A DNA stretch of 64,000 nt, from contig NZ_FQVL01000007.1 in NCBI RefSeq assembly GCF_900129355.1, positions 58,106 through 122,105 on the forward strand, read 5' to 3'. Below are positions 3,756 through 63,667 of the stretch, piece by piece (within the stretch, counting starts at the first letter, position 1; each line of letters begins with the position of its first letter). The notes under the pieces are model-generated. The model was not told where the DNA came from, searched no databases, and saw only the letters and a list, made by a program, of their open reading frames with translations. This stretch comes from Seinonella peptonophila. GTDB lineage: Bacteria > Bacillota > Bacilli > Thermoactinomycetales > Thermoactinomycetaceae. Made by a program: the position numbers and the translations under genes.

Positions 3756-3920
3756 AATGCTGTTGTAGAGATGGTGTGTCACTAAGTGTGTCAACTCAAC
3801 CAGCCCAACTAAATCCCAAACAAACTCAAATTAAATCCAAACTCTCCAACCCCTTAATTCAACACGCCTCAACGGACTTCCCCGCACCTCATCAAAACTC
3901 ACTCAACACCACCCTGAACT

Positions 3921-3967
3921 CACTCGTAATGATGGGGTCGCAGGTTCAAATCCTGTTGTCAGCACCA
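3921..3967 (+). repeat. tRNA 3'-half-like att site copy 1 (T-arm CGCAGGTTCAAATCCTGTTGTCAGCACCA)
   Basis: canonical T-stem and T-loop plus an ACCA 3' end but no D-arm or 5' acceptor strand; repeated at 5694-5742. Confidence 0.5.
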
Positions 3968-4546
3968 GCTAAACCCTTGTGAATCAGGGGTTTTTGTGTT
4001 TTATTGTTTACTAGTTTCAATTACAAAACTTTGAGATCTGGATTGCTAGCAACCAATCGTGAAACAATTGATTATTGAAATTGAGGGTTATGGTTTACAA
4101 GCATTGCTCCATGGAAAATGTCAAGATAGTCATGAATTACGGAAGAAGTTTTTTCAAACATTACGAAACTTACATGGTAACGAGGATTTTCTTCACGTCT
4201 TTTGTAGGGATCATCAGTTTGAAGAAGTTCCTTACTCAGGCTTAATTGAGGCTGATTTTCTGCTCGATGTGGATGTACTACGTGTTTTTAAAAATGAAGG
4301 AGATCATTGGAAGATGATATGATCCAATCATGACCACCACACATAAAAAGGGTGGTCATGATTGTGTTTGATCAAATAATTCACCCATTTATACCAAGAG
4401 GCTTGCAGTTATTACATTGCAATGGAGTAGGGGTAAAAATAAAAACTGAACCACTAAAGAAATGTTTAGGGTTCAGCACACTCACTTTGAATTAACAGAT
4501 TGGTTCCTTATATCACCTCACATTGATTGAAAGTTAACGAATAAAC

Positions 4547-4690
4547 GCTTATTCTACTTGGCTAAGTATTCTTTAATACTGATACGTTGTGCTGGGCGCA
4601 TTTCAATTTCATCCAGTTCTTTTTGTGTAAAAAAACGCAGCTGAGTTGATTCAAAGCTTACTGTAAGCTCACCGCTTGCGGATACATCAC
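4547..4690 (-). pseudogene. Nudix hydrolase C-terminal fragment (copy i of triplicated module)
   Basis: minus-strand translation [39 protein letters not shown] is homologous to the C-terminus of the 8494-8874 ORF. Confidence 0.45.
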
Positions 4691-4825
4691 AAGAACGTGA
4701 AGGATTTAAATCTAAGAGAATGGACATGTCCAGAATGTAACAAGCATCATGATCGAGACATGAACGCAGCCATTAACATCTTGCATGAAGGTATGAGATT
4801 AGTCGCCGTGGGGCTCACGGTCTGA
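4691..4825 (+). pseudogene. IS200/IS605-family TnpB (OrfB) C-terminal fragment
   Basis: translation ...[34 protein letters not shown] carries the TnpB zinc-finger/RuvC-III signature; no N-terminal part upstream. Confidence 0.55.
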
Positions 4826-4890
4826 GCTTGGTCAATTTCTCTAGATTGCGAGAGATTACCCAAGAATCTCCCGCGTTTACGCATGGGGAG
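4826..4890 (+). mobile_element. IS605-family right-end / omega-RNA-like remnant after the TnpB fragment
   Basis: GC-rich structured stretch (GCTTGGTCAATTTCTCTAGATTGCGAGAGATTACCCAAGAATCTCCCGCG...) at the position where TnpB elements carry their RE RNA. Confidence 0.3.
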
Positions 4891-4945
4891 TGGTCAAGGA
4901 GATTAATTAAGGTATAATACACTTGAAAGAGTATGGATCGAAACG

Positions 4946-5245
4946 GTGGTGGGGGTTGTGTTAGTAAATAATTTGAATGACAGTCTAAAGAAAATGAAGC
5001 TTTTTTTAAGAGATTCATATGGGGTGAAGAAAATAGGCTATTTTGGTTCCTATGTACGAGGTGAACAGACGGAAAAAAGTGATATTGATTTATTGGTTGA
5101 GTTTTCTAAGCCAATTGGATTGCGCTTTGTTGAGCTTAAAGAACATTTGGAAAGAGAATTGGGTAAAAATGTTGATTTAGTCACGACTAAAGCATTAAAA
5201 CCTCAATTACGAGAAGCTATTTTAAATGAGGTTATTTATCTATGA
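4946..5245 (+). CDS. nucleotidyltransferase (MNT-type) antitoxin of a HepT/MNT pair
   Basis: GYFGSYVRGEQTEKSDIDLLV nucleotidyltransferase motif; 4-nt ATGA overlap with the downstream hepT. Confidence 0.7.
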   Translation: MVGVVLVNNLNDSLKKMKLFLRDSYGVKKIGYFGSYVRGEQTEKSDIDLLVEFSKPIGLRFVELKEHLERELGKNVDLVTTKALKPQLREAILNEVIYL

Positions 5246-5589
5246 AAAGAAATTTTGTTCTTTTTTTAGAAGATATAACCAATTGTATGAATAAAATCGA
5301 AAGCTATATAACTGATTTAAGTTATGAATAATTTGAAGAGAATCAATTAGTCATTGATGCAGTTGTCCGTAATCTTGAAGTGATCGGAGAGGCGTCAAAG
5401 TATATACCAGAAGAGATTAGGCAAAAATATCCGCAGGTTCCATGGAAGAGCATGATTGGTCTAAGAAACATTCTGATACACGAATACTTTGGCATTGATG
5501 AGCAAATTATTTGGGAAATTGTATCTCAAGATTTCAGAGAAACAAAACCACTGATCGAAAATATTTTAGTAAAGGTAAAAAATGATTGA
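5242..5589 (+). pseudogene. hepT: HepT (DUF86) toxin interrupted by an in-frame TAA at 5329-5331
   Basis: MKRNFVLFLEDITNCMNKIESYITDLSYE*FEENQLVIDAVVRNLEVIGEASKYIPEE...RNILIHEYF stays in one frame across the TAA; HEPN Rx4-6H-like motif RNILIHEY in the distal part. Confidence 0.6.
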
Positions 5590-5693
5590 ATTTTTAAATA
5601 TGTATTATTTTTGTTGAACCGTCCATTGCTATTTCAAAGATAATTGGATCACAATATTCAATGTCAGGATAATTGTAGTATTTTGTGTGTCAA

Positions 5694-5742
5694 CTCACTC
5701 GTAACGATGGGGTCACAGGTTCAAATCCTGTTGTCAGCACCA
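5694..5742 (+). repeat. tRNA 3'-half-like att site copy 2
   Basis: near-identical to 3921-3967; begins a roughly 320-bp segment (5692-6015) about 95% identical to 3905-4235. Confidence 0.5.
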
Positions 5743-5944
5743 GCCTACCCTTGTATAGCAAGTATTTTTTTGTGTTTTATTGATTGCTATTTTCAAATAC
5801 AAAACTTTGAGATCTGGATTAACTAGCAACCAATCGTGACACAATTGATTATTGAAATTGAGGGTTATGGTTTACAAGCATTGCTCCATGGAAAATGTCA
5901 AGATAGTCATGAATTATGTAAGAAGTTTTTTCAAACATTACGAA

Positions 5945-6215
5945 CTTGCATGGTAACGAGGATTTTCTTCACGTCTTTTTTAGGGATCATCAGTTTTGAA
6001 CGTACAAAGGCGCCTCCTTTAGGAGCAATCTCAATCAAATTCTTCGTTTGAAGTCGAAGTAATGCCGTTCGAATGGTCGTGCGACTTACATTCATTTCTT
6101 CAGCTAATATACGCTCTGCTGGAAGGCGTTGTCCAGCAGCAAATACTCCTTGGATAATATCAGCTTCAATTTTATTTACTACCTCGTCGAGTTTTTGATT
6201 GTTGTGTCATCGTAT
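5945..6215 (-). pseudogene. YtrA-type GntR-family regulator, copy ii, frameshifted near the start
   Basis: minus-strand VVNKIEADIIQGVFAAGQRLPAERILAEEMNVSRTTIRTALLRLQTKNLIEIAPKGGAFVRSK... (GntR HTH); the ATG-led frame MTQQSKTRRGSK* is out of frame with the HTH. Confidence 0.5.
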
Positions 6216-6227
6216 TACCACACATTG

Positions 6228-6400
6228 AACGTAAGTTATCGGATAAACGCTTTTTCTGCTTGGGCAAAATAATCTTTAATACGGATACGTTGTGCTGGAT
6301 GCATATCGACTTCAGCCAGTTCACTTTGTGTAAAAAAACGCAGTTGAGTGGATTCTGAACTTACGGATAGCTCGCCGCCAATAATCATGCTATTAAGGAA
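6228..6400 (-). pseudogene. Nudix hydrolase C-terminal fragment (copy ii)
   Basis: GGELSVSSESTQLRFFTQSELAEVDMHPAQRIRIKDYFAQAEKAFIR* nearly identical to the C-terminus of 8494-8874. Confidence 0.45.
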
Positions 6401-6807
6401 TCAAAGGGGATCGTTGAGAGGAACACCGAATCTTGTACCAAATACTATCCGAACGTAAACAGCAGCTAACGAGAGTTTAATAGGCAAAAGTTCCATACAT
6501 CACGTTTATATGAGTTTTAATGCTTCTTTGATGAGCTTCAAGAGTGGTAATCTCTAACGTTTGTTTTGCAGTAGTTTTGAAATTTATCGTACATCTTGTT
6601 TACTGAAATTAGGTGCAAAATGCCTGCTTTTTATTATAATTAATGGTGGTTTATGCGTTTTGCATAAGTTGAAGCCAAGTGTGCGCAGGGAGCGGGACTA
6701 GACGTATGTGGTGAATACGAGGTGACAGATTGAGTTGCCGGAAGGATAAGCCTCGTAGCTTTGAGCAATAAAAGCGGTGAAATGAACATCATAGAGGAGG
6801 CGACAGT

Positions 6808-8124
6808 GTGGCCGTTTTCCACGAGTTAGAAGTGACCGAATTTCCAGATCGGCGTGGACAGACGTATTTTGTGCAGACGGGGCAGGATTACCAATTCGGG
6901 GATCCAGAACAACACACGAAGTTTTTAGAAGGATGCGAAAAGTATTTGGCGGTTCTCAACGAGGAGAACCGAGAAGTAGGCAAAAAAGAAGTTACCAATG
7001 GCCCGATTCATACGATTACTAACGAGCAAACCAATGCGCATGGGGAGACATTGTTGCAGACGAAACAGACAACATATGTGCATTTCCGTGCCTATGTCGA
7101 TTCACAAGATCCGAAATTATCCAAGGAGAAGCGCGCCAAGCTTCAAGAATGTTTTGGTGAAATAGGTGGTGTACCACCGTGCCCTGTAGGCAGCCCGATG
7201 ACGATGATCATTCCGAAGCAAGAGCCTCCGTCGCATGAATCAAAAGTGACAAAAGTGCGCGACAAACTGCCAGCGATCGTTGCACAGGCGATCGATTTGT
7301 CAACGGCGAAGTTGAACGAGCAGATAACACAGCGGCGTGGCAGACAACGAGCAGTGTTTGGCATGGTGAGCCAAAAGAGTAATTTCGCCGGTGCGGGCAC
7401 GATACAAGGGTTTGGAGGTGCTCTCAATGAAAACACCGCGCTGTTGCCGGTAGAGACGCAGCTAAAGCTGGCGGAGTTACAAGAGCGTGGCTTCGTGTTG
7501 AACGAGCTTGGGGAAGATGCACGTGTGTGGACGCAAGATCGGGTGATTGATTCATATTTGGAGCAACAGCTGGCTCTGGTGGAGAGCGAGCGTGAATATT
7601 TGGGTCCGATCAAAGATCCGCGCGGCAACTATTACATCTTGAGTGCTGATCATGTGGACAAAACGCTGGAAGAATTGCAAGACTTGCAAGAGCAACAGCG
7701 GGCAGTGGGAAAGACAAAGTTTGATCAGCTGATCGATATGCCACTCGACGGTCGAGCGGCGAGTTTGCAGATGGCGCGCAACGGACAAACCCCGCGCCTT
7801 TACGTCGGACCTGGCCTCGATCGCTTACGAGAGCGAATGCTGGATCAGAAAATGGATCGTGTCATGCAACTTAATGAGTTTATTGGCCAAACACGCGGAA
7901 ATTTTGCCAACGTGCAAGAAAAAGTGAAATCCAATTGGCAGCAGAGCCGCATCGCTGCGATGGAATCTGGGGAATCCCAGCGCAAAGCAGCCTTTTTGGC
8001 CACAGGTCAGCTCGGGAAGCAACTATTGCAGTTGGGTGCGAAGAAGGCTAGAGCGAAGATTAGATTTACACCAAAAGATAAAATTGATCAAGTTGTTGGA
8101 AAATCTAGAGGAAGAGAATTTTAA
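6808..8124 (+). CDS. hypothetical protein (438 aa) on a roughly 52% GC island; GTG start with AGAGGAGG RBS
   Basis: long ORF with strong RBS and a terminator at 8132-8165; codon composition is distinct from the flanking roughly 33% GC DNA. Confidence 0.6.
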   Translation: MAVFHELEVTEFPDRRGQTYFVQTGQDYQFGDPEQHTKFLEGCEKYLAVLNEENREVGKKEVTNGPIHTITNEQTNAHGETLLQTKQTTYVHFRAYVDSQDPKLSKEKRAKLQECFGEIGGVPPCPVGSPMTMIIPKQEPPSHESKVTKVRDKLPAIVAQAIDLSTAKLNEQITQRRGRQRAVFGMVSQKSNFAGAGTIQGFGGALNENTALLPVETQLKLAELQERGFVLNELGEDARVWTQDRVIDSYLEQQLALVESEREYLGPIKDPRGNYYILSADHVDKTLEELQDLQEQQRAVGKTKFDQLIDMPLDGRAASLQMARNGQTPRLYVGPGLDRLRERMLDQKMDRVMQLNEFIGQTRGNFANVQEKVKSNWQQSRIAAMESGESQRKAAFLATGQLGKQLLQLGAKKARAKIRFTPKDKIDQVVGKSRGREF

Positions 8125-8131
8125 AATAAAT

Positions 8132-8165
8132 AAAGCCGTTTCTTGATTAGGAATCGGCTTTTTCT
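8132..8165 (+). terminator. rho-independent terminator (AAGCCG...CGGCTT + TTTT)
   Basis: hairpin plus T-run read directly from the sequence. Confidence 0.45.
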
Positions 8166-8212
8166 AAATTTCCTTATTTGCACCTGTTAACTGAAATTCA
8201 TCCCCAAATTTA

Positions 8213-8446
8213 TCAACCAGTTGATAACCAGCGAGAGAGACGCTTGATGTCACTAATGACTAAAATGGTTGATGCGTCTCCTCTAGGAATCATCTCAATC
8301 AAATTCTTCGCTTGCAGTCGAAGTAATGCCGTTCGAATGGTCGCGCGACTTACATTCATTTCTTCAGCTAATATACGTACTGCTGGAAGTCGCTGTCCAG
8401 CATTATATAACCTTTGGATCATATCCAATTTTATCGGATATCTCAT
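8213..8446 (-). pseudogene. YtrA-type GntR regulator, copy iii (HTH frame runs from an internal Met; upstream ATG-led frame MTQQSKIDEISDKIGYDPKVI* is shifted)
   Basis: LYNAGQRLPAVRILAEEMNVSRATIRTALLRLQAKNLIE GntR HTH; frameshift between the N-terminal leader and the HTH. Confidence 0.45.
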
Positions 8447-8493
8447 CGATTTTTGATTGTTGTGTCATCGTATCACCACACATTGAACGTAAG

Positions 8494-8874
8494 TTATCGG
8501 ATAAACGCTTTTTCTGCTTGGGCAAAATAATCTTTAATACGGATACGTTGTGCTGGGTGTATATCGACTTCAGCCAGTTCATTTTGTGTAAAAAAACACA
8601 GTTGAGTGGATTCGGAACTTACGGATAGCTCTCCGCCAGTAATCATGCAGGCAAAACAGATTGAGAACTGTTGTCGAACTTCTCCATCAGAATAGGCAAT
8701 GATATGGTTTAGATCAGTATAGATGCCGACACAACCTGTTACTTGGACATTCAATCCACTTTCTTCGTTCACTTCAAGTATGATTGTATTTTCAATCGAC
8801 TCTTCTAACTTGTGATTCGTGTGTCGGCATATACGGCGATCGATGACTTTTACGAAGGATAAATAAGTTAACAC
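8494..8874 (-). pseudogene. Nudix-like hydrolase, N-terminally truncated with a degenerate Nudix box
   Basis: LEESIENTIILEVNEESGL resembles the Nudix box (GX5EX7REUXEEXGU) but has GG->HT and R->L; stop codon immediately upstream of the first Met. Confidence 0.4.
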
Positions 8875-14607: not shown

Positions 14608-14833
14608 TCGTTGCTCAGTTTGTAGAAAAAGGTAGTGGTTCTGTCAATCTTTCACGCTTCGACTCCTTTTTAGGATGTGTAGCTGTCTTCAAGGCGCCTT
14701 GAAAGTTGCTCCCTACTGAGATATTGACTCCATGATTTCCTTGTAATCGAACAAAAGTTTCATTGCCCACTCCTCTGTTTTTCGGTGCAAAGGAGTAGGC
14801 AATGTCGTTTCAAGAGCGACATATACAAAAATC

Positions 14834-28805: not shown

Positions 28806-29009
28806 CTCGTATCGCCTGTATCGAATGATAACAGCTAGATTGTCACTCCATTATACATGACTTGCTCAAAACCAACTTATGGATGGCCGAAGAATGAGCG
28901 AATAATGTAGTGAGTAATATGTTGATTACAATCATATTTAAATTGCTTTAAACATAATTTGAACAAGGACTCTAACATTCAACAAAAACATGCAACATTG
29001 CTAAATAAA

Positions 29010-29258
29010 CCCTATGACGAGTGAGAAGGGACGGCAAAATTCCATATCAGACAAACAACTAGTGGAATGGCGCTGAAGCAGTAGTTTCTCATCGGGCAAA
29101 CGGTTCGAGTCTCCGCTAAGCGTACACCAGAGAGGAGAGTTTTGCCGGGTCAAGAAAGCTGACAGAATGTGACAGCAGACACATGTTTGTAAGACCAGAT
29201 CGGGGATTCGCTGTGAACCACGATTACGAGCAGATCACACGACTTTATTTACAAGCTG
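29010..29258 (+). repeat. intergenic repeat family A, copy A1 (upstream of catalase)
   Basis: shares GGGCAAAC(G/T)GTTCGAGTCTCC...GAGTTTTGCC(C/G)G...GAACC(A/G)CGAT...TTTRTCTACAAG with 41084-41365 and 55075-55345. Confidence 0.5.
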
Positions 29259-31170: not shown

Positions 31171-31442
31171 AAACTACTAGATGTAACCTTTCTAGATATT
31201 CCTTTAGCACCTGTTGCTTGTTGGCAGGTGCACCAAGATAGAGGCTTTGCAGTGAACGGATATCGGGCAAGATAAGGCAGTTCTTACGGACAAGCTCTTT
31301 TTTAGACTTGATCAGGGTTCCTTGGTCTATGTTTGAGATGGATCTGTCTGGTAACAATTGTCTGAAACTTGTCCTCAAGTTACACTCCGCTAATATTTTG
31401 GAAAGGGTTTCTAGAAAGGTTCTAATTTTTTGGGGTGGAAAC

Positions 31443-32558
31443 ATGTTAAGAGTAAAGATCCAAAATGATGAAAGAGGACTTCTTTTTAAAGATGGAAACT
31501 ATATGAAGTGTCTGCAACCAGGGAAGTATTTTTATAATCCTTTTGTGAAATATAGCGTTGTGAAAGCAGATGTTAATCAGCCTTTTGATGGTGCAGGTAA
31601 AAATATCAATCTCTTTTTAGAAGATGAGGAGCTAGGAAAAGAACTAACGATTTTGGATGTTCAAGATTATGAGATTGCTATTCATTTTGAAGATGGAAAG
31701 CTTGTAGATGTATTAACAGCAGGCAAATATGCTTTTTGGAATGTATTGAAAAAGCATGAATTTATCATGGTAGACAAGAGAAATCCTGAGATTGATCCTA
31801 AGATCGATCTTTCCGTCTATAGTCATCCATTGATGTTTGAACATGTGACACACTTTCATGTGTTGAGCCATGAACAAGGTATTCTTTACTTTGACAATGT
31901 GGTACAGAAGATACTAGAACCAGGCATATACTCTTTTTGGAGAAGCCCGATTCAAGTAACTGTGCAAAAAATCGATTTGAGACAACAGCAGATCGATATG
32001 ACTGGACAAGAGATGATGACAGCAGATAAGGTTTCCATGAGACTTAACTTCGTTTGTCATTATCGGATTACAGATCCACTGAAAGTCATGCAGATTAAGT
32101 CGTTTGAAGAACAGATTTATATTGCACTGCAACTGATTTTAAGAGAGTATGTTGGAATCATGAAGCTCGATGATTTGTTGCTTAAAAAGCAAGAAGTAGG
32201 TCAATATGTTTTGCAAAAGCTACAGGAGAAAAACAATGAGTATGGAGTGGAGTTTATCTTTGCAGGGGTAAAGGATGTGATTTTACCTGGTGATATGAAA
32301 GAAATTTTAAACACCGTCCTGATCGCAGAGAAACAAGCCCAAGCGAATGTTATTACCAGAAGAGAAGAGACTGCCTCTACTCGAAGTTTACTAAATACGG
32401 CTAAGTTAATGGAAGAGAATCAAACGCTCTATAGGTTAAAGGAACTAGAATTTTTAGAAAAAATCTGTGAGAAAATAGGTAATATCTCTCTAACAGGTGA
32501 AAATAATCTACTGGAACAGCTGAATCAATTGGTCGCGAGAAATACAAATCATAAATAA
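31443..32558 (+). CDS. SPFH/band-7 (stomatin/flotillin-like) domain protein
   Basis: C-terminal half has the SPFH core plus a coiled-coil-like EKQAQANVITRREETAS... region; GGTGGA RBS. Confidence 0.65.
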   Translation: MLRVKIQNDERGLLFKDGNYMKCLQPGKYFYNPFVKYSVVKADVNQPFDGAGKNINLFLEDEELGKELTILDVQDYEIAIHFEDGKLVDVLTAGKYAFWNVLKKHEFIMVDKRNPEIDPKIDLSVYSHPLMFEHVTHFHVLSHEQGILYFDNVVQKILEPGIYSFWRSPIQVTVQKIDLRQQQIDMTGQEMMTADKVSMRLNFVCHYRITDPLKVMQIKSFEEQIYIALQLILREYVGIMKLDDLLLKKQEVGQYVLQKLQEKNNEYGVEFIFAGVKDVILPGDMKEILNTVLIAEKQAQANVITRREETASTRSLLNTAKLMEENQTLYRLKELEFLEKICEKIGNISLTGENNLLEQLNQLVARNTNHK

Positions 32559-32886
32559 ATGAAGGGTGATAGAACACGACAGCTCTACTTCCTAGAAGGC
32601 CTGGATCGGAGCGTTGCCGTGAAGCACGATCACGTGCTGGTCTCGCTTTGTCACCATCTTTTTCTCACATATTGAAAAGTATAGACCGATTCCGCCTTAT
32701 CGATTGGGGATCAGTGGATTCAGTTAGCATGAAAATTCCGCTGTTAGGTAGATCTGGTATGATAGGGCAGTAGGTCAAGTGGAGTTTGATATTATTCCTA
32801 ATATTATGCAAATTACCTCCGGAGCCTGGCACTCCGTAAAGCGCCAGTTCCGACACCCCGTGTGAAAGGAGGGTGTCATGGGTGGG

Positions 32887-34887: not shown

Positions 34888-35937
34888 ATGATTCGAATAG
34901 TTAATCATAATCTGAAGAATAATTTACTTTCAATGAGGATCGGGTTCATTGTTGTATTGACATGTATGCTGGCTTTATCTACATTTATCTCACTTTCAAC
35001 GACAAAAGTCGAGGCAGCCGCAAACGGTGGCAAAGTGATGAGTGAGAAATGGCGTGATGATCGGACACTTGAGCTAACCATATCAAGCCCATCTGTTGAA
35101 GGGACAAAAAAAGTCCTGCTTTTACTTCCCAAGAGTTGGTCAAAAACAAGTGATCAGAAATGGCCGACATTATGGCTTTTACATGGTGGGGGAGGTAACC
35201 AGGTAGATTGGCTTAAAAATACTGATGTAGCGTCACTGACAAAAAATCTTGACTTGATCGTTGTCATGCCTGAGACAAGCGATTGCAGTGCCTATTCTGA
35301 TTGGTGGAACGATGGAAAATTGGGGAAACCTGCTTGGGAGACCTACTTAACAAAAGATGTTCGGGAAATCCTCGAATCTGGCTATAAGGCGAATGAAAAT
35401 CGTGCAATAGCTGGACTCTCTATGGGTGGATTAGGTGCTTTAAAACTAGCAGCGAATCATCCAAAGATGTTTCAGGCTGCTGCATCATTTAGTGGAAACG
35501 TAGATATTCTTCATCGATATAACAATAGTCTAACAGGCCCTGACTATCCAGGTCTCGGTTGTATTTCAAAATGGAAGAGCATCAATGACTGGAAACGAGT
35601 CTGGGGAGACCCACAGGTTCCCGCTCAAAAAGAGATCTGGAAGCGAAATAATCCTTATGATCAAGCAGAAAAATTATCACAACTTCATTACCTGTATGTC
35701 TCCAGTGGAACTGGTTTTGGAAGCCCTCTAAAAGTAGGGAATCAATTTGACTTGATTGAACAAGAAGTAAATCGACAAGCGCATGGATTAGTGGAGAAAC
35801 TCAATCAATTGCATATACCTGTTGCTTCTCATTTTTATAGTGGAAACCACAGTTGGCCATACTGGAAACAAGAATTACACAAAGCATTACCAGGGATCTT
35901 AAACGCTCTACATGTGGATGGCGATCATAAACAGTGA
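34888..35937 (+). CDS. secreted esterase-family alpha/beta hydrolase (PF00756-like); alternative start 34933 (MRIGFIVV... signal peptide)
   Basis: LLHGGGGN...GLSMGGLGAL nucleophile elbow; N-terminal signal peptide. Confidence 0.7.
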   Translation: MIRIVNHNLKNNLLSMRIGFIVVLTCMLALSTFISLSTTKVEAAANGGKVMSEKWRDDRTLELTISSPSVEGTKKVLLLLPKSWSKTSDQKWPTLWLLHGGGGNQVDWLKNTDVASLTKNLDLIVVMPETSDCSAYSDWWNDGKLGKPAWETYLTKDVREILESGYKANENRAIAGLSMGGLGALKLAANHPKMFQAAASFSGNVDILHRYNNSLTGPDYPGLGCISKWKSINDWKRVWGDPQVPAQKEIWKRNNPYDQAEKLSQLHYLYVSSGTGFGSPLKVGNQFDLIEQEVNRQAHGLVEKLNQLHIPVASHFYSGNHSWPYWKQELHKALPGILNALHVDGDHKQ

Positions 35938-35967
35938 GAAGAAAACCTCCGTTCAAATAACGGAGGT

Positions 35968-36327
35968 TCCAGACTGAAGAAAAACCAATATTTTGGTTAA
36001 AAATCATGGAAAATAAAGCATGTTTAAAGGAGGAAATGCTTTGCAATCTAGCCCGACTTTCAGGCACTACCAAGCCACGACTGTGTAGCGAAGAATAGAT
36101 GGTAGTACTGTCTGCGCACGCCGTGCACAAGTTTCGCTAAGCAGCTAACGCTGCAAGTCTCACTATGACGCGATAGCCGAGTTGATACCACCCTGAGCGA
36201 GCAGTCGTGGCGCCTTGAATACTTCTATGCAGCCTGAACTGGAGGCATCCATCTTTTTTTCAATAACACGGAGTGCATAAAGCTTGACTCACAGAAATGA
36301 AGGCGACTTATACTTTGTCCACAAGCT
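35968..36327 (+). mobile_element. repeat family B copy B1, about 360 bp non-coding element inserted in a terminator hairpin and flanked by 26-bp direct duplications (35942-35967 and 36328-36353: AAACCTCCGTTCAAATAACGGAGGTT)
   Basis: about 85% identical core to 56467-56827; no ORF; flanking hairpin duplicated. Confidence 0.5.
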
Positions 36328-36549
36328 GAAACCTCCGTTCAAATAACGGAGGTTCTTATGTTCATGCAATAATACGGCATTATGAGAGAAGGAGATTGAT
36401 CTAATATTTTGTGTTTAAATTTGAATATTCAGGGTATCATTAAATATAATTGGTTAACTATGTAACATTTTGCTAGTTGTAAATGAATATTGGTTAATTT
36501 CATGTTGTTATTTATCTTAAAGCTTATTTGAGAAAGGAGATATGCAAAT

Positions 36550-40589: not shown

Positions 40590-41070
40590 AGAAGATTTAA
40601 AGGAGTACTGGTCGTTGCGACTTCGGTCCGTTCAAGAGCATCCTGAAGCTTTTATCCCGACAATAGAGGAATTGGATGATCAAAAATATATGGAGATGAC
40701 AGTACGGATCAAGCCAACAGATCTGTCTTGGTTTTTGGGAGCTTTTGAAAATGGAGAACTAGTTGGTGCCATGAGTTGGAAACGGGAAGAGCCAGCCAAG
40801 TTACAACATAAGTCACACATTTATGGTGTGTATGTAGTCCCAGAAGCACGACGAAAAGGAATCGGTCGGGCTTTACTAGAGCATCTCATTAGTCGAGTGA
40901 AAAAAGTAGCTGGAGTTGAACAAATTCTATTAACAGTTGCAAATTCAAATCCAGCCAAATCTCTTTATCTTCAGTGTGGATTTATATCCTATGGATATGA
41001 GAAGAAATCATTGAAAATTGGTGAAGCGTATGTAGACGGAGTGTTGATGGTTCTCTTTTTAAAGGATTGA
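40567..41070 (+). CDS. GNAT-family N-acetyltransferase
   Basis: VVPEARRKGIGRALLEHL acetyl-CoA binding motif. Confidence 0.75.
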   Translation: MQIRVLTEEDLKEYWSLRLRSVQEHPEAFIPTIEELDDQKYMEMTVRIKPTDLSWFLGAFENGELVGAMSWKREEPAKLQHKSHIYGVYVVPEARRKGIGRALLEHLISRVKKVAGVEQILLTVANSNPAKSLYLQCGFISYGYEKKSLKIGEAYVDGVLMVLFLKD

Positions 41071-41083
41071 GTCAATAAGGCTC

Positions 41084-41365
41084 TTCAGACTGACGAGAAA
41101 CACTAACGAGTGAGTGTAGAGATAATCGGCAAAGCTTTATTTCGGGCGCAACATAGTTCAATGACAACTGAAGCGGCATTTTCTTCTTGGGAAAACTGTT
41201 CGAGTCTCCTCAGGCACATGTCGAAGAAGTCGAGTTTTGCCCGATTGTGAAGGCTAACAGAAGCGAAGGCCCACATCCTGGAGGACCCGGTCGCGGAACA
41301 TCGCCGAGAACCGCGATCAAATGACTTTGTCTACAAGTTGGTGAGCCCCAAGGGCTCTTTTTTTA
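41084..41365 (+). repeat. intergenic repeat family A, copy A2, ending in a terminator hairpin (GAGCCCcaaGGGCTC + T7)
   Basis: homologous to 29010-29258 and 55075-55345; shares left end TTCAGACTGAcGAgAAAC with family B. Confidence 0.5.
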
Positions 41366-41431
41366 TGCCATTTTATGTTGGTTTTTATTGCCCATTTGCG
41401 GGAAAATGAAAGGAAAGAAGGAGGAAATATC

Positions 41432-54229: not shown

Positions 54230-54293
54230 AATGACGGACACGCCCGCCGCTCCGAAGAGCGGGGGCGTGCCGTGACCCGGGGTTGTGGGAGGG

Positions 54294-54668
54294 TCAGTCC
54301 TCGGCGTTGTCCTCGTCGGCCGGTCGCATCTTCACGGCGACGACGATCCCGATGGCGAACAGGATGAACAGGAAGGGGAACTGGCTGACGATCGCGCCGG
54401 CGTAGAAGCCGAGCAGCGCCATGCCCGGACGCCACTTCTTGACGAACAGCTCCAGCTTCGTGGCGAAGTGCCCGCCGACGGTGCTCTGCTGCTCCATCTT
54501 CTTGGAGATGCGCACGGCGGCGAAGAGCACACAGAGGGCGAAGAGCGCGGGGACTCCGATGACGACCGTCATCATGAAGCTGTCAAACCCGATGAGCAGG
54601 CCGATGAGGGTGGTCCCGATGCTCACTGAGGTGGCGGCGCTCGGACGGAGGAAGGACGATTTGGACAT
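54294..54668 (-). CDS. hypothetical small membrane protein on a roughly 62% GC island between hslO and cysK
   Basis: three hydrophobic helices; the only frame in this GC-rich stretch with protein-like composition; GC-rich terminator hairpin at 54245-54275. Confidence 0.45.
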   Translation of the reverse strand: MSKSSFLRPSAATSVSIGTTLIGLLIGFDSFMMTVVIGVPALFALCVLFAAVRISKKMEQQSTVGGHFATKLELFVKKWRPGMALLGFYAGAIVSQFPFLFILFAIGIVVAVKMRPADEDNAED

Positions 54669-55074
54669 GACTTTCCCTTTCGGGTTTGCTGCCACAGGCA
54701 GTTACGAACGGAATCTGATTCTGTTCGGTAGCTTCACTAGGGATCTAGCGAATTCACCTTGTAAATGCTCCAATCTGGACAAGGTGAAAAGGGCAACTAC
54801 CTACTTGATTTCAACATAGCATGTGGATAAGGATGATGCAAGTTACAAGGAGCAGTAGATGGTTCGGAGGATAGAATTTCTAGGTCTTAACTAAGAAGTC
54901 CGTTTGAAGCAATGAGCAAACGAGGTAGCACATTTGTGATCGGATTGCGCCTGCATATTTGTAATTTTTCATCATGCTTGACCACCCCCTACGTATGAAA
55001 TGCGGGGGATGCTTATGTAATCTCTCACAACTGAGAGAAATCGAATCAATTAAGCGTGCATCCGACGTTATAAA

Positions 55075-55345
55075 TTCAGCTTGAAGAAAACCCCTTAAAC
55101 GAGTGGAGAGGTAATCGGCAAAGCTCCATTTCGGGCGCAACTTAGCGGAATGGCAGCTGAAGCGGTATTTTCCTTACGGGCAAACTGTTCAAGTCTCCGC
55201 AGGCGGATGCCGGAGGAGGCGAGTTTTGCCCGACCACAAAAGCTGTCAGAACGCGGACAGATTCACATCCTTGCAAGCCCGGGTCGGAGCAAAGCCGTAA
55301 GCCACGATCACGAGCCGCCGATCACGGAGCTTTGTCTACACTCTG
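55075..55345 (+). repeat. intergenic repeat family A, copy A3 (upstream of cysK)
   Basis: homologous to A1/A2; shares the TTCAGcTTGAAGAAAAC left end. Confidence 0.5.
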
Positions 55346-55494
55346 GTTATAAATAATTGTGTAAACGAAACTGACAAAGGGAAGAAAAAAAGAGATCGAT
55401 CTGTTGAGAGAAGTTGCTTGACAGTTGTGGATGGACATTGATAAGATAATATATAAAATCCTATATGATTAATAGGAATAGGAGGAATCACTCC

Positions 55495-56424: not shown

Positions 56425-56466
56425 TGTTAGAAAACCATTAAAGCATCTAACATGTTTACGCTAGGT

Positions 56467-56827
56467 TTCAGACTGATGAAAAATCCAATTGATGAAATGA
56501 AGAGGTTCGTACAATTGGGTAGAAGAAGAAATCGTGGAGTCAATATTTCGCTGCGGGCGGAAAAATACTCCTTAACCCGCATTTTACTAGGCGCTACCAA
56601 GCCACGACTGTGTAACGAAGAATAGTCAGTAGTACTGTCTGCACACGCCATGCACAAGTTTCGCTAAGCAGCTAACGCGCTGCAAGTCTCACTATGACGA
56701 GGTAGCCAAGTTGATACCGCCCTGAGTGAGCAGTCATGGCGCCTTGAAGACATCAACGCATCCTGAAATGGAGGCGAAGCGTGAAATATTGACGGAACCT
56801 TTACTTTATCTACTAATAGACACTTAG
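56467..56827 (+). mobile_element. repeat family B copy B2 inserted in the cysK terminator; flanked by a duplicated CATGTTTACGCTAGGT (56451-56466 and 56828-56843)
   Basis: core homologous to 35968-36327; the right-hand copy of the duplication is followed by TGTTTTTT, giving an intact terminator. Confidence 0.5.
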
Positions 56828-56977
56828 CATGTTTACGCTAGGTGTTTTTTGCTGTGCAAATATGAATCTAGTTAATCTTCAATTTTTAAATCTGAGGCCA
56901 AGAAATAGTTTTTCATGATGAATGAAATAAGGTATATTAAGAGCACTTGAATAACTTTTCTATGGTTCGGTAGGTGT

Positions 56978-63579: not shown

Positions 63580-63667
63580 AGTTACACATGTGTCACTTTG
63601 GATAAAAAAATAACTTATATGTTTACACATAGATTATTATACATATAAGTTACACATGTGTCACTTG
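63580..63667. promoter_or_regulatory. two identical 19-bp palindromic operator-like sites AGTTACACATGTGTCACTT (63580-63598, 63649-63667) plus an 11-bp inverted repeat between them
   Basis: read directly; located between the TetR gene and the ABC operon. Confidence 0.5.

Follow-up and report, generated by a model that had tools for sequence, protein, structure and literature searches.

What is the DNA that separates two identical stem-loops downstream of an esterase gene in Seinonella peptonophila, and how did it come to lie there? The gene (34888-35937, Pfam Esterase) is located in a 64,000-nt stretch of contig NZ_FQVL01000007.1, hereafter the window, whose coordinates are used throughout. 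It is followed by a direct repeat, AAACCTCCGTTCAAATAACGGAGGTTC, found at 35943-35969 and again at 36329-36355 with 27 of 27 positions identical. Each copy is composed of a 10-bp stem and a 5-nt loop (AACCTCCGTT-CAAAT-AACGGAGGTT) with 1 nt on either side, and folds as DNA with a predicted energy of -10.7 kcal/mol (z = -7.1). The only other long perfect local direct repeat in the intergenic DNA of the window is an unrelated 19-mer near 63.6 kb. The left copy (plus strand) corresponds to the terminator stem-loop of the esterase gene, the T-tract of which is displaced by the DNA that follows. The right copy still has the original T-rich tail (36329-36365, plus strand) and is called as a terminator with 10 pairs and the tail CTTATGTTCA, giving a functional-looking intrinsic terminator.

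The intervening 359 bp (35970-36328, plus strand), named here element B1 and delimited by the abutting repeats, start with CAGACTGAAGAAAAACCAAT and have a GC content of 45% overall. The left terminus, CAGACTGAAGAAAAACC (35970-35986, plus strand), runs into a subterminal hairpin at 35983-35998. Further in lies a GC-rich core (36062-36246, plus strand, 54% GC) with a 10-bp closing helix, GCCACGACTG/CAGTCGTGGC, and the element ends with a right terminus, ACTTTGTCCACAAGCTG (36312-36328, plus strand), whose reverse complement matches the left one at 10 of 17 positions. The ORF list and a six-frame translation contain a single ORF wholly within B1, of 30 aa (36006-36098). Two minus-strand ORFs of 43 aa and 109 aa overlap the element, the longer one extending into the esterase gene. 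None of these ORFs is kept in the second copy of the element, B2, the core of which also differs by a 2-nt indel.

B2 (56469-56819, plus strand, 351 bp) begins 45 nt 3' of the cysK stop codon, between diverged copies of another hairpin. Its core (56589-56775) is 89% identical to that of B1 over 187 nt, and the subterminal regions of the two elements are 35-47% identical. The flanking repeat can be read as a 19-mer with one mismatch, which extends to approximately 26-27 nt with four mismatches and one indel, and the ancestral form of the hairpin was about CACCTAGC-ATGTTTAC-GCTAGGTG. Its left copy (56443-56468, plus strand) has decayed and folds poorly (-0.6 kcal/mol), and its right copy with T-tract (56820-56850, plus strand) is called as a terminator with 11 pairs and the tail TTTGCTGTGC. 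In an independent assembly of the same genome, the corresponding Logan contig ends inside B2, as expected of a multi-copy repeat. The preliminary description of this DNA had proposed an element of about 360 bp, free of ORFs, inserted into a terminator hairpin with a 26-bp duplication, and a second copy in the cysK terminator with a different flank. The size, the lack of a conserved ORF and the second copy all hold. The hairpin is indeed present twice and in perfect form, but over 27 bp, and the site is indeed a terminator, but B1 sits between the stem-loop and its T-tract rather than inside the hairpin, the whole stem-loop having been duplicated.

A third and degenerate family B copy, B3 (approximately 14616-14788, minus strand), was found downstream of a minus-strand RibD_C gene. 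Its 5' terminus is decayed; what remains is the last 110 nt at the 3' end and some of the 5' region, and the core is absent. GGCGC motifs flank the core on either side, and the sequence at the B3 junction, ...ACTTTCAAGGCGCCTTGAA, is compatible with loss of the DNA between them; B3 appears to have lost its core by deletion between these microhomologies.

Other elements of the window have the termini of B1 and a different interior, and are referred to as family A. The first, A1 (41086-41340, plus strand, 255 bp, 49% GC), has B termini and a core unrelated to that of B. It lies at the terminator of a GNAT gene, the left hairpin copy of which (TGAGTCAATAAGGCTCTT, 41068-41085, plus strand) is identical at 13 of 18 positions to 41342-41359 and forms only a weak hairpin (-1.5 kcal/mol). 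The right copy with T-tract (41342-41366, plus strand), made of GAGCCCCAAGGGCTC then TTTTTTTATG, is called as a terminator. A2, which spans 55067-55354 on the plus strand with its flanks, lies upstream of the cysK promoter; the element itself (55077-55345) has 269 bp and 55% GC. It is flanked by a direct repeat, GTTATAAAT (55067-55075 and 55346-55354), identical at 9 of 9 positions and forming no hairpin. A3 (approximately 28996-29258, plus strand), located upstream of a catalase gene, has diverged (73% identity to A2) and its 5' terminus is decayed, and A4 (32562-32658, plus strand) is a 3' fragment that directly follows the stop codon of the ORF at 31308-32558. Altogether, the window contains at least seven elements or fragments (B1-B3 and A1-A4).

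With the elements delimited as CAG...CTG, each of the four intact copies (B1, B2, A1 and A2) is bordered by direct repeats that abut its termini, and these repeats vary by locus in both sequence and length (27, about 26, 18 and 9 bp, respectively). Their composition follows a common rule, namely one nucleotide, a local palindrome and then 2-3 nt of T-tract, which reads TT(C) in B1, B2 and A1. Thus, the B1 repeat is A + AACCTCCGTT-CAAAT-AACGGAGGTT + C, that of B2 is N + CAyyTArC-ATGTTTAC-GCTAGGT(G) + TT and that of A1 is T + GAGyC-mmwAr-GGCTC + TT (13/18), and the A2 repeat, G + TTATAA + AT (9/9), has the same form as the other three. In three of the four cases (B1, B2 and A1), the repeat is the local terminator stem-loop. 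Because the repeats differ from locus to locus, abut the termini exactly and mostly coincide with the local stem-loop, they point to target-site duplication by a mobile element; the pattern reads as the signature of such duplication, with joining positions apparently set by the feet of the stem-loop, and would be hard to obtain by any other route.

One such route would be that the elements never moved, being host structured-RNA genes (3'-UTR-derived sRNAs or cis-regulators) whose hairpin pairs arose by local duplication or as independent tandem terminators. A conserved core beside an unconserved periphery would suit host RNA genes, as would the 3' UTR or intergenic position of every copy and the GC-rich intergenic repeats that are also present in the relative Lihuaxuella. 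This explanation is nevertheless very unlikely: the 27/27 repeat abuts the B1 termini to the nucleotide, this arrangement is repeated at loci whose hairpins are unrelated, and the neighbouring genes (esterase, cysK, GNAT, RibD_C and catalase) are functionally unrelated. Degenerate and internally deleted copies are present, and there is no match to an Rfam family.

Families A and B were compared at their ends. Both have the 5' terminus CAGACTGAnGAnAAA and the 3' terminus CTTTGTCyACAAGyTG, and their cores are unrelated. The left end of B1 is common to B2, A1 and A2, and its right end to all A and B copies. A search of the window with the left-end pattern CAGACTGAnGAnAAAC, allowing up to two mismatches, gave five matches for 0.66 expected, a number reached in none of 100 shuffles, and the right-end pattern ACTTTGTCyACAAGyTG, with up to three mismatches, also gave five, for 0.76 expected. 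Since both termini are common to both families, A and B are treated here as one superfamily. These results bear out the preliminary description, which had noticed the common left end (the right end is added here), had suggested a single superfamily on that basis and had taken the flanks for target-site duplications of a mobile element; the last point is now supported by four intact copies with locus-specific, abutting repeats.

The two ends are related to each other as an only moderately convincing, imperfect inverted repeat. The left end matches the reverse-complemented right end at 10/17 positions in B1, 9/17 in A1, 11/17 in A2 and 7/17 in B2. Identity of 10/17 or more occurs in 0.5% of random pairs drawn from the window, and the values for B1, A1 and A2 correspond to p of about 0.001-0.02 each against such pairs, in tests that are not independent. 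The left and right ends consistently differ at positions 4, 5, 8, 9 and 12, and these differences are common to both families. A subterminal hairpin is further predicted at the same offset past the left end in B1, B2, A1 and A3, with stems of different sequence; it is weak in A2.

A terminator consensus scan called the right-hand hairpins of B1, B2 and A1, each with a T-rich tail, and never the left-hand ones, which are not called because the element replaces their T-tract. The 60 kb scanned contain roughly ten strong hairpins that resemble terminators. Three of them are occupied by an element, and these three hairpins (B1, B2 and A1) are mutually unrelated in sequence. Five of the seven copies (B1, B2, A1, B3 and A4) directly follow a gene of the same strand. 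Of the other two, A3 comes after a divergent gene, and A2 has the orientation of hslO but is located approximately 850 bp further downstream. Since the five copies include B3 on the minus strand, orientation tracks the polarity of the terminator and not the chromosome strand.

This arrangement has consequences for transcription. As only the right-hand hairpin keeps a T-tract, the elements are expected to be transcribed by read-through, as 3' UTRs: a host transcript would not end at the proximal hairpin, now disarmed, but would continue across the element as far as the distal one. A scan for promoter-like sites found none inside B1, B2 or A1; within the elements it matched only at two overlapping sites, which start in the last bases of A2 and straddle its 3' end. 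The proximal hairpin is intact in B1 only, having decayed in B2 and A1 (see the energies above), and the distal copies are still good hairpins. Because the proximal hairpin is intact there only, B1 is, judging by hairpin decay, most probably the youngest of these insertions.

Orientation that follows host transcription is also what would be expected of a SINE-like retroposon, in which the read-through 3'-UTR RNA is reverse-transcribed at staggered nicks flanking the terminator hairpin (target-primed), yielding variable duplications and 5'-truncated copies. Duplication length does vary here (9, 18 and 27 bp). In the degraded copies A3, A4 and B3, the 5' ends are lost or degraded and the 3' ends are better preserved; retroposition would also give this pattern, which to that extent counts against a DNA-transposon reading. 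The core is GC-rich and structured by prediction, and the lack of promoter-like sites in B1, B2 and A1 implies expression mainly via read-through. Inverted-repeat ends conserved across two families are, however, typical of DNA transposons, neither an A-tail nor another 3' priming signature is present, and no reverse transcriptase is encoded in the window. Target-primed retroposition of non-intron elements is not known to be established in bacteria, and we hold retroposition to be unlikely here.

The interior of the elements stands out from the surrounding DNA, with 45-55% GC for the elements and 52-54% for the B core against 39.5% for the window. Between B1 and B2, the core is 89% conserved, against 35-47% in the periphery. 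Its predicted fold is closed by GCCACGACUG/CAGUCGUGGC, and the B1/B2 differences that fall in predicted pairs comprise one compensatory G-C to A-U change, four wobble changes and no disruptive one, a count that is drawn from two sequences with a structure chosen by the same program and that the opposite strand equals. Indeed, both strands of the core fold and tolerate the observed transitions, in A and B alike, when two or three sequences are compared with G-U pairs taken into account. The conservation of the core beside near-randomised subterminal regions, which would not be expected of a passive deletion derivative, suggests that the core is under selection. Most likely, the GC-rich core is maintained by selection as a structured module of RNA or of single-stranded DNA, and its conservation suggests that the elements are more than passive MITEs.

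Several specific identities were considered for this region. A coding function was rejected: one frame stays open in both B1 and B2 as far as a common TAG, yet the encoded peptides show no conservation, the core differences are non-synonymous and B3 lacks the region. A hammerhead ribozyme (CUGAnGA...GAAAC) was rejected by inspection, with no helix II after CUGAnGA and GAAAC following directly. A group I intron, to which the U before the element and the G at its 3' end had pointed, found no support in Rfam. A bolder reading makes the elements terminator-homing mobile RNA genes. Their core would be a functional structured RNA, for example a guide or cofactor for their own trans-acting integrase, or a ribozyme, expressed only via forced host read-through, and the hairpin would be duplicated by an unrecognised structure-measuring integration (joining at both cruciform feet, or target-primed synthesis) that also preserves host termination. 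We consider this improbable.

Database searches were performed with the elements and their parts. Rfam at gathering threshold reported only two tRNAs over the whole window, and with B1, B2 and A1 at E up to 10 it gave noise only, with no group II intron, HEARO or other match. No match was obtained by blastn against plasmids and phages. In a genome-contig collection that lacks or masks the source genome, an 18-mer of the B core had seven chance matches in unrelated taxa (the Paenibacillus one in coding sequence), and a 21-mer of the A core had a single chance match in a metagenome-contig collection, again in coding sequence. In a viral-contig collection, the B-core pattern had no match and the two termini 39 and 15 chance matches, and no locus outside phage coding sequence carried a proper pair of left and right termini. 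Translated in its stop-free minus-strand frame, the core returned no candidates in a protein search. The cysK product is 100% identical to that of S. peptonophila, and its nearest relatives beyond this are 85-88% identical and come from metagenomic assemblies. The orthologous cysK loci of five relatives have different terminators and contain no A or B sequence or terminus; at this distance, the search among them yielded no empty site. Since neither the collection, plasmid and phage scans nor these loci gave a true match, the superfamily appears to be lineage-restricted. Within the 64-kb window, no transposase, of the DDE_Tnp_1 or DDE_Tnp_1_6 type or any other, and no autonomous element with A/B termini was detected, 20 ORFs searched against Pfam being housekeeping or unassigned.

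The Rfam results also bear on whether A and B derive from a known type of element, either as ORF-less group IIC introns or as PATEs of the IS200/IS605 type carrying an omega-RNA. Insertion directly after a terminator stem-loop in sense orientation recalls the former, and the subterminal hairpins resemble those at IS200/IS605 ends. Yet neither class has a match among the Rfam models searched up to E = 10, and both insert without target duplication, which is the main feature here. For group IIC introns in particular, the A/B termini are CAG...CTG and not GUGYG...AY, and 255-359 bp is below the size of any group II ribozyme. A derivation of either kind is extremely unlikely.

The reading that we favour, and regard as probable though by no means certain, is that B1 was inserted recently and belongs, with the other A and B copies, to a new superfamily of small non-autonomous terminator-homing transposable elements that is restricted to this lineage and whose integration joins them to the target at both feet of the stem-loop. 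Members of the superfamily would be defined by the imperfectly inverted termini given above and the subterminal hairpin, around unrelated interiors that make up elements of 255-269 bp in A and 351-359 bp in B. A transposase or integrase supplied in trans would read an intrinsic terminator by its structure, namely the stem-loop and the start of the T-tract, and not by its sequence. One strand would be joined to an element end 1 nt before the 5' side of the stem, the other strand 2-3 nt beyond its 3' side, and gap repair would then duplicate the whole stem-loop. Insertion would be orientation-specific, the 5' end of the element being placed beside "hairpin-TT" with the T-tract giving the polarity. 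With its T-tract gone, the proximal hairpin would no longer end the host transcript, which would extend across the element to the distal hairpin; the element would be expressed as a 3' UTR, and the proximal hairpin would be free to decay. A structure-reading mechanism is favoured because the observed geometry matches one outcome of the published IS1272/TnSha1 model, in which the whole stem-loop is duplicated if the element 3' ends join the 5' feet of an extruded cruciform (PMC5678879, Fig 13 pathway b). Against this reading stand the fruitless search of the window for an autonomous element, the imperfection of the terminal inverted repeat, only 7/17 in B2 and with consistent differences between left and right, and the variable duplication of 9-27 bp, which is atypical for DDE transposases.

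A duplication that consists of a palindrome could also be the work of a Cas1-like enzyme (casposase or CRISPR-adaptation type) or another structure-specific integrase that measures across the palindrome, the hairpin being duplicated as a CRISPR repeat is. The directional insertion, apparently set by the T-tract, would be analogous to leader-repeat polarity. Casposons give 14-15-bp duplications beside the palindromic tRNA T-psi-C segment, and Cas1 prefers cruciform-forming inverted repeats (PMC5137440). There is, however, no cas1 gene in the window, duplication length follows the hairpin and no fixed ruler (just 9 bp in A2), and nothing else links the A/B elements to casposons, so that a Cas1-like origin is highly improbable.

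If integration at the stem-loop feet is correct, DNA secondary structure, and not a fixed enzyme stagger, can determine how long a target-site duplication is. The same geometry would restore the terminator of the host gene while placing the element in its 3' UTR, which may explain how the repeat came to occupy about a third of the strong terminators of this region with no obvious harm. The core represents a new candidate class of ncRNA in the Thermoactinomycetaceae, a poorly studied family. In practical terms, such elements break short-read assemblies, and 3' UTRs with tandem hairpins are liable to be misread by annotation pipelines.

Among known systems, several share one or another of these features. 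The homing site of group IIC introns is the position immediately past an intrinsic terminator stem-loop, on its 3' side, and they lie there in the direction of transcription. The A/B elements are like them in this position and in their sense orientation, and unlike them in that these introns are ribozyme retroelements of at least 600 nt with GUGYG...AY ends and domains V/VI, inserted without target duplication. Their targeting is touched on in PMC7923331. With the IS200/IS605 PATE/omega-RNA elements, the subterminal hairpins are the only likeness, A/B having a duplication and no HEARO match. IS1634/IS1549 produce direct repeats that are unusually long and differ in length between insertions (8-514 bp), for which there is no accepted mechanism (PMC2266710). 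By description, on which this comparison is based, these are autonomous IS of 1.5-2 kb whose repeats are not reported at hairpins or terminators, unlike those of A/B.

When a casposon integrates, 15 bp next to a palindromic tRNA segment are duplicated, and when a CRISPR spacer integrates, a whole and often palindromic repeat is copied (PMC5137440). As proposed for A/B, staggered attacks at the borders duplicate an entire segment, insertion is directional and casposons have terminal inverted repeats. In contrast to A/B, the duplication is fixed (14-15 bp or one CRISPR repeat), cas1 is required, none being seen in the window, and integration takes place at tRNA 3' ends or at leader-repeat junctions, not at terminators in general.

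Being smaller than about 600 bp and non-coding, with locus-specific flanking duplications and multiple dispersed copies, the A/B elements have several of the attributes by which MITEs are recognised. Like the bacterial MITEs Correia, RUP, bcr1 and MITEAba12, they are small, multi-copy and intergenic, have no conserved ORF, carry flanking direct repeats and putative terminal inverted repeats, and include families that have common ends around different interiors. They differ from them in three respects: the typical MITE duplication is fixed at 2-9 bp whereas that of A/B ranges from 9 to 27 bp and tracks the palindrome, the A/B inverted repeat is only about 60% identical, and in A/B it is the subterminal regions that have diverged more and the interior less, where a passive deletion derivative would show the reverse.

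The closest parallel in targeting is with IS1272 and TnSha1 (IS1182 family) of staphylococci, which insert into hairpins that are mostly RNA-seq-confirmed terminators without a primary-sequence consensus (PMC4923244, PMC5678879). In both systems, the host belongs to the Bacillota, the target is a stem-loop, usually a terminator right after a gene, read by structure, and the terminal inverted repeats, imperfect in A/B, have about 16 bp. IS1272 and TnSha1, however, delete part or all of the hairpin, are found in either orientation and produce no duplication (PMC4923244, PMC5678879), whereas A/B duplicate the whole hairpin, follow the orientation of the terminator, lack a transposase gene and have a conserved GC-rich core. 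The probable end of IS1272 in a 5'-truncated copy, in which this end is uncertain, shows no evident likeness to CAGACTGA. In the literature searched, no published example was found of whole-stem-loop duplication by hairpin-targeting insertion sequences, and the A/B elements would be the first case found of a hairpin-targeting insertion that duplicates the hairpin instead of destroying it. Within the hairpin-targeting transposable elements and MITEs, they would constitute a new family, distinct by whole-terminator duplication, orientation specificity and a conserved structured core.

In a separate short-read assembly of the same genome, a contig of 1347 bp (Logan SRR5187778) starts inside A2, the family A element located upstream of the cysK promoter (55077-55345), and ends inside B2, the family B copy found at 56469-56819; both elements are therefore assembly-breaking repeats. 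In the window, ca. 850 bp (54230-55070) separate hslO from A2, with only overlapping ORFs on both strands and no Pfam match in this interval, while the hslO-cysK spacing in relatives is only 80-300 bp. On the other side of cysK, a relative in which this gene is 86% identical (L009:2070-2240) carries ca. 150 nt of unrelated, GC-richer sequence (ACCGAAATGC…GCATTTCGGTTTTTTT) from the cysK stop to its terminator. In L011, another sequence from outside the window, an A-like 3' segment (…CACGAGTGATCAACTCCATCTTATCGTCTGATCTG) lies immediately upstream of the cysK promoter, at the position that corresponds to the site of A2, and could represent a divergent form of the superfamily that families A and B make up.

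Within family B, one shared frame is open in B1 (36006-36098) and B2 (56478-56630), running from the 5' periphery of the element to a single TAG within the GC-rich core and ending in …TKPRLC(S/N)EE*; the ATG of the B1 frame is preceded by AAAGGAGG. This frame is probably non-coding because, outside of this common end, the B1 and B2 peptides are unrelated and because the region that carries it is absent from B3, the core-deleted copy on the minus strand (14616-14788). A second, three-codon frame, GTG AAA (T/G)AT TGA, occurs 6-7 nt after a GGAGG/GGAG motif in B2 (56760-56790) and B3 (14650-14680, minus strand) and is not kept in B1; the motif and its short frame may have arisen by chance.

Other repeats were observed elsewhere in the window. 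Large local duplications occur at 3900-8700, with units of 54-199 bp that are 82-98% identical and spaced by ca. 1.7-2.3 kb. They include a 53-nt segment resembling a tRNA 3' end (…GGGGTCGCAGGTTCAAATCCTGTTGTCAGCACCA), present at 3917 and again at 5692, in which no tRNA was called by ARAGORN, and may represent tandem integrated elements or att-site remnants. Near 63.6 kb, a perfect 19-nt direct repeat with an internal palindrome, AGTTACACATGTGTCACTT, is found at 63580-63598 and 63648-63666; its two copies, offset by 68 nt and flanked on either side by a minus-strand ORF, look like a paired operator.

Finally, a composite GC-rich repeat of ca. 590 bp having no BLAST similarity with Seinonella family A or B was detected in Lihuaxuella thermophila (FOCQ01000016.1, L071), where two copies, ca. 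90% identical, occupy the coaX-hslO and folK-dus intergenic regions (L071:8290-8860 and L071:14575-15200). It is composed of 110-nt long-hairpin modules (CGCTCCGAAATCTTTTTTACGAC...GTCGCAAAAAAGATTTC), of TTGATACAACCTAGAGAC repeats and of a 230-nt GC-rich module, and its occurrence suggests that intergenic regions of Thermoactinomycetaceae commonly contain structured repeats.
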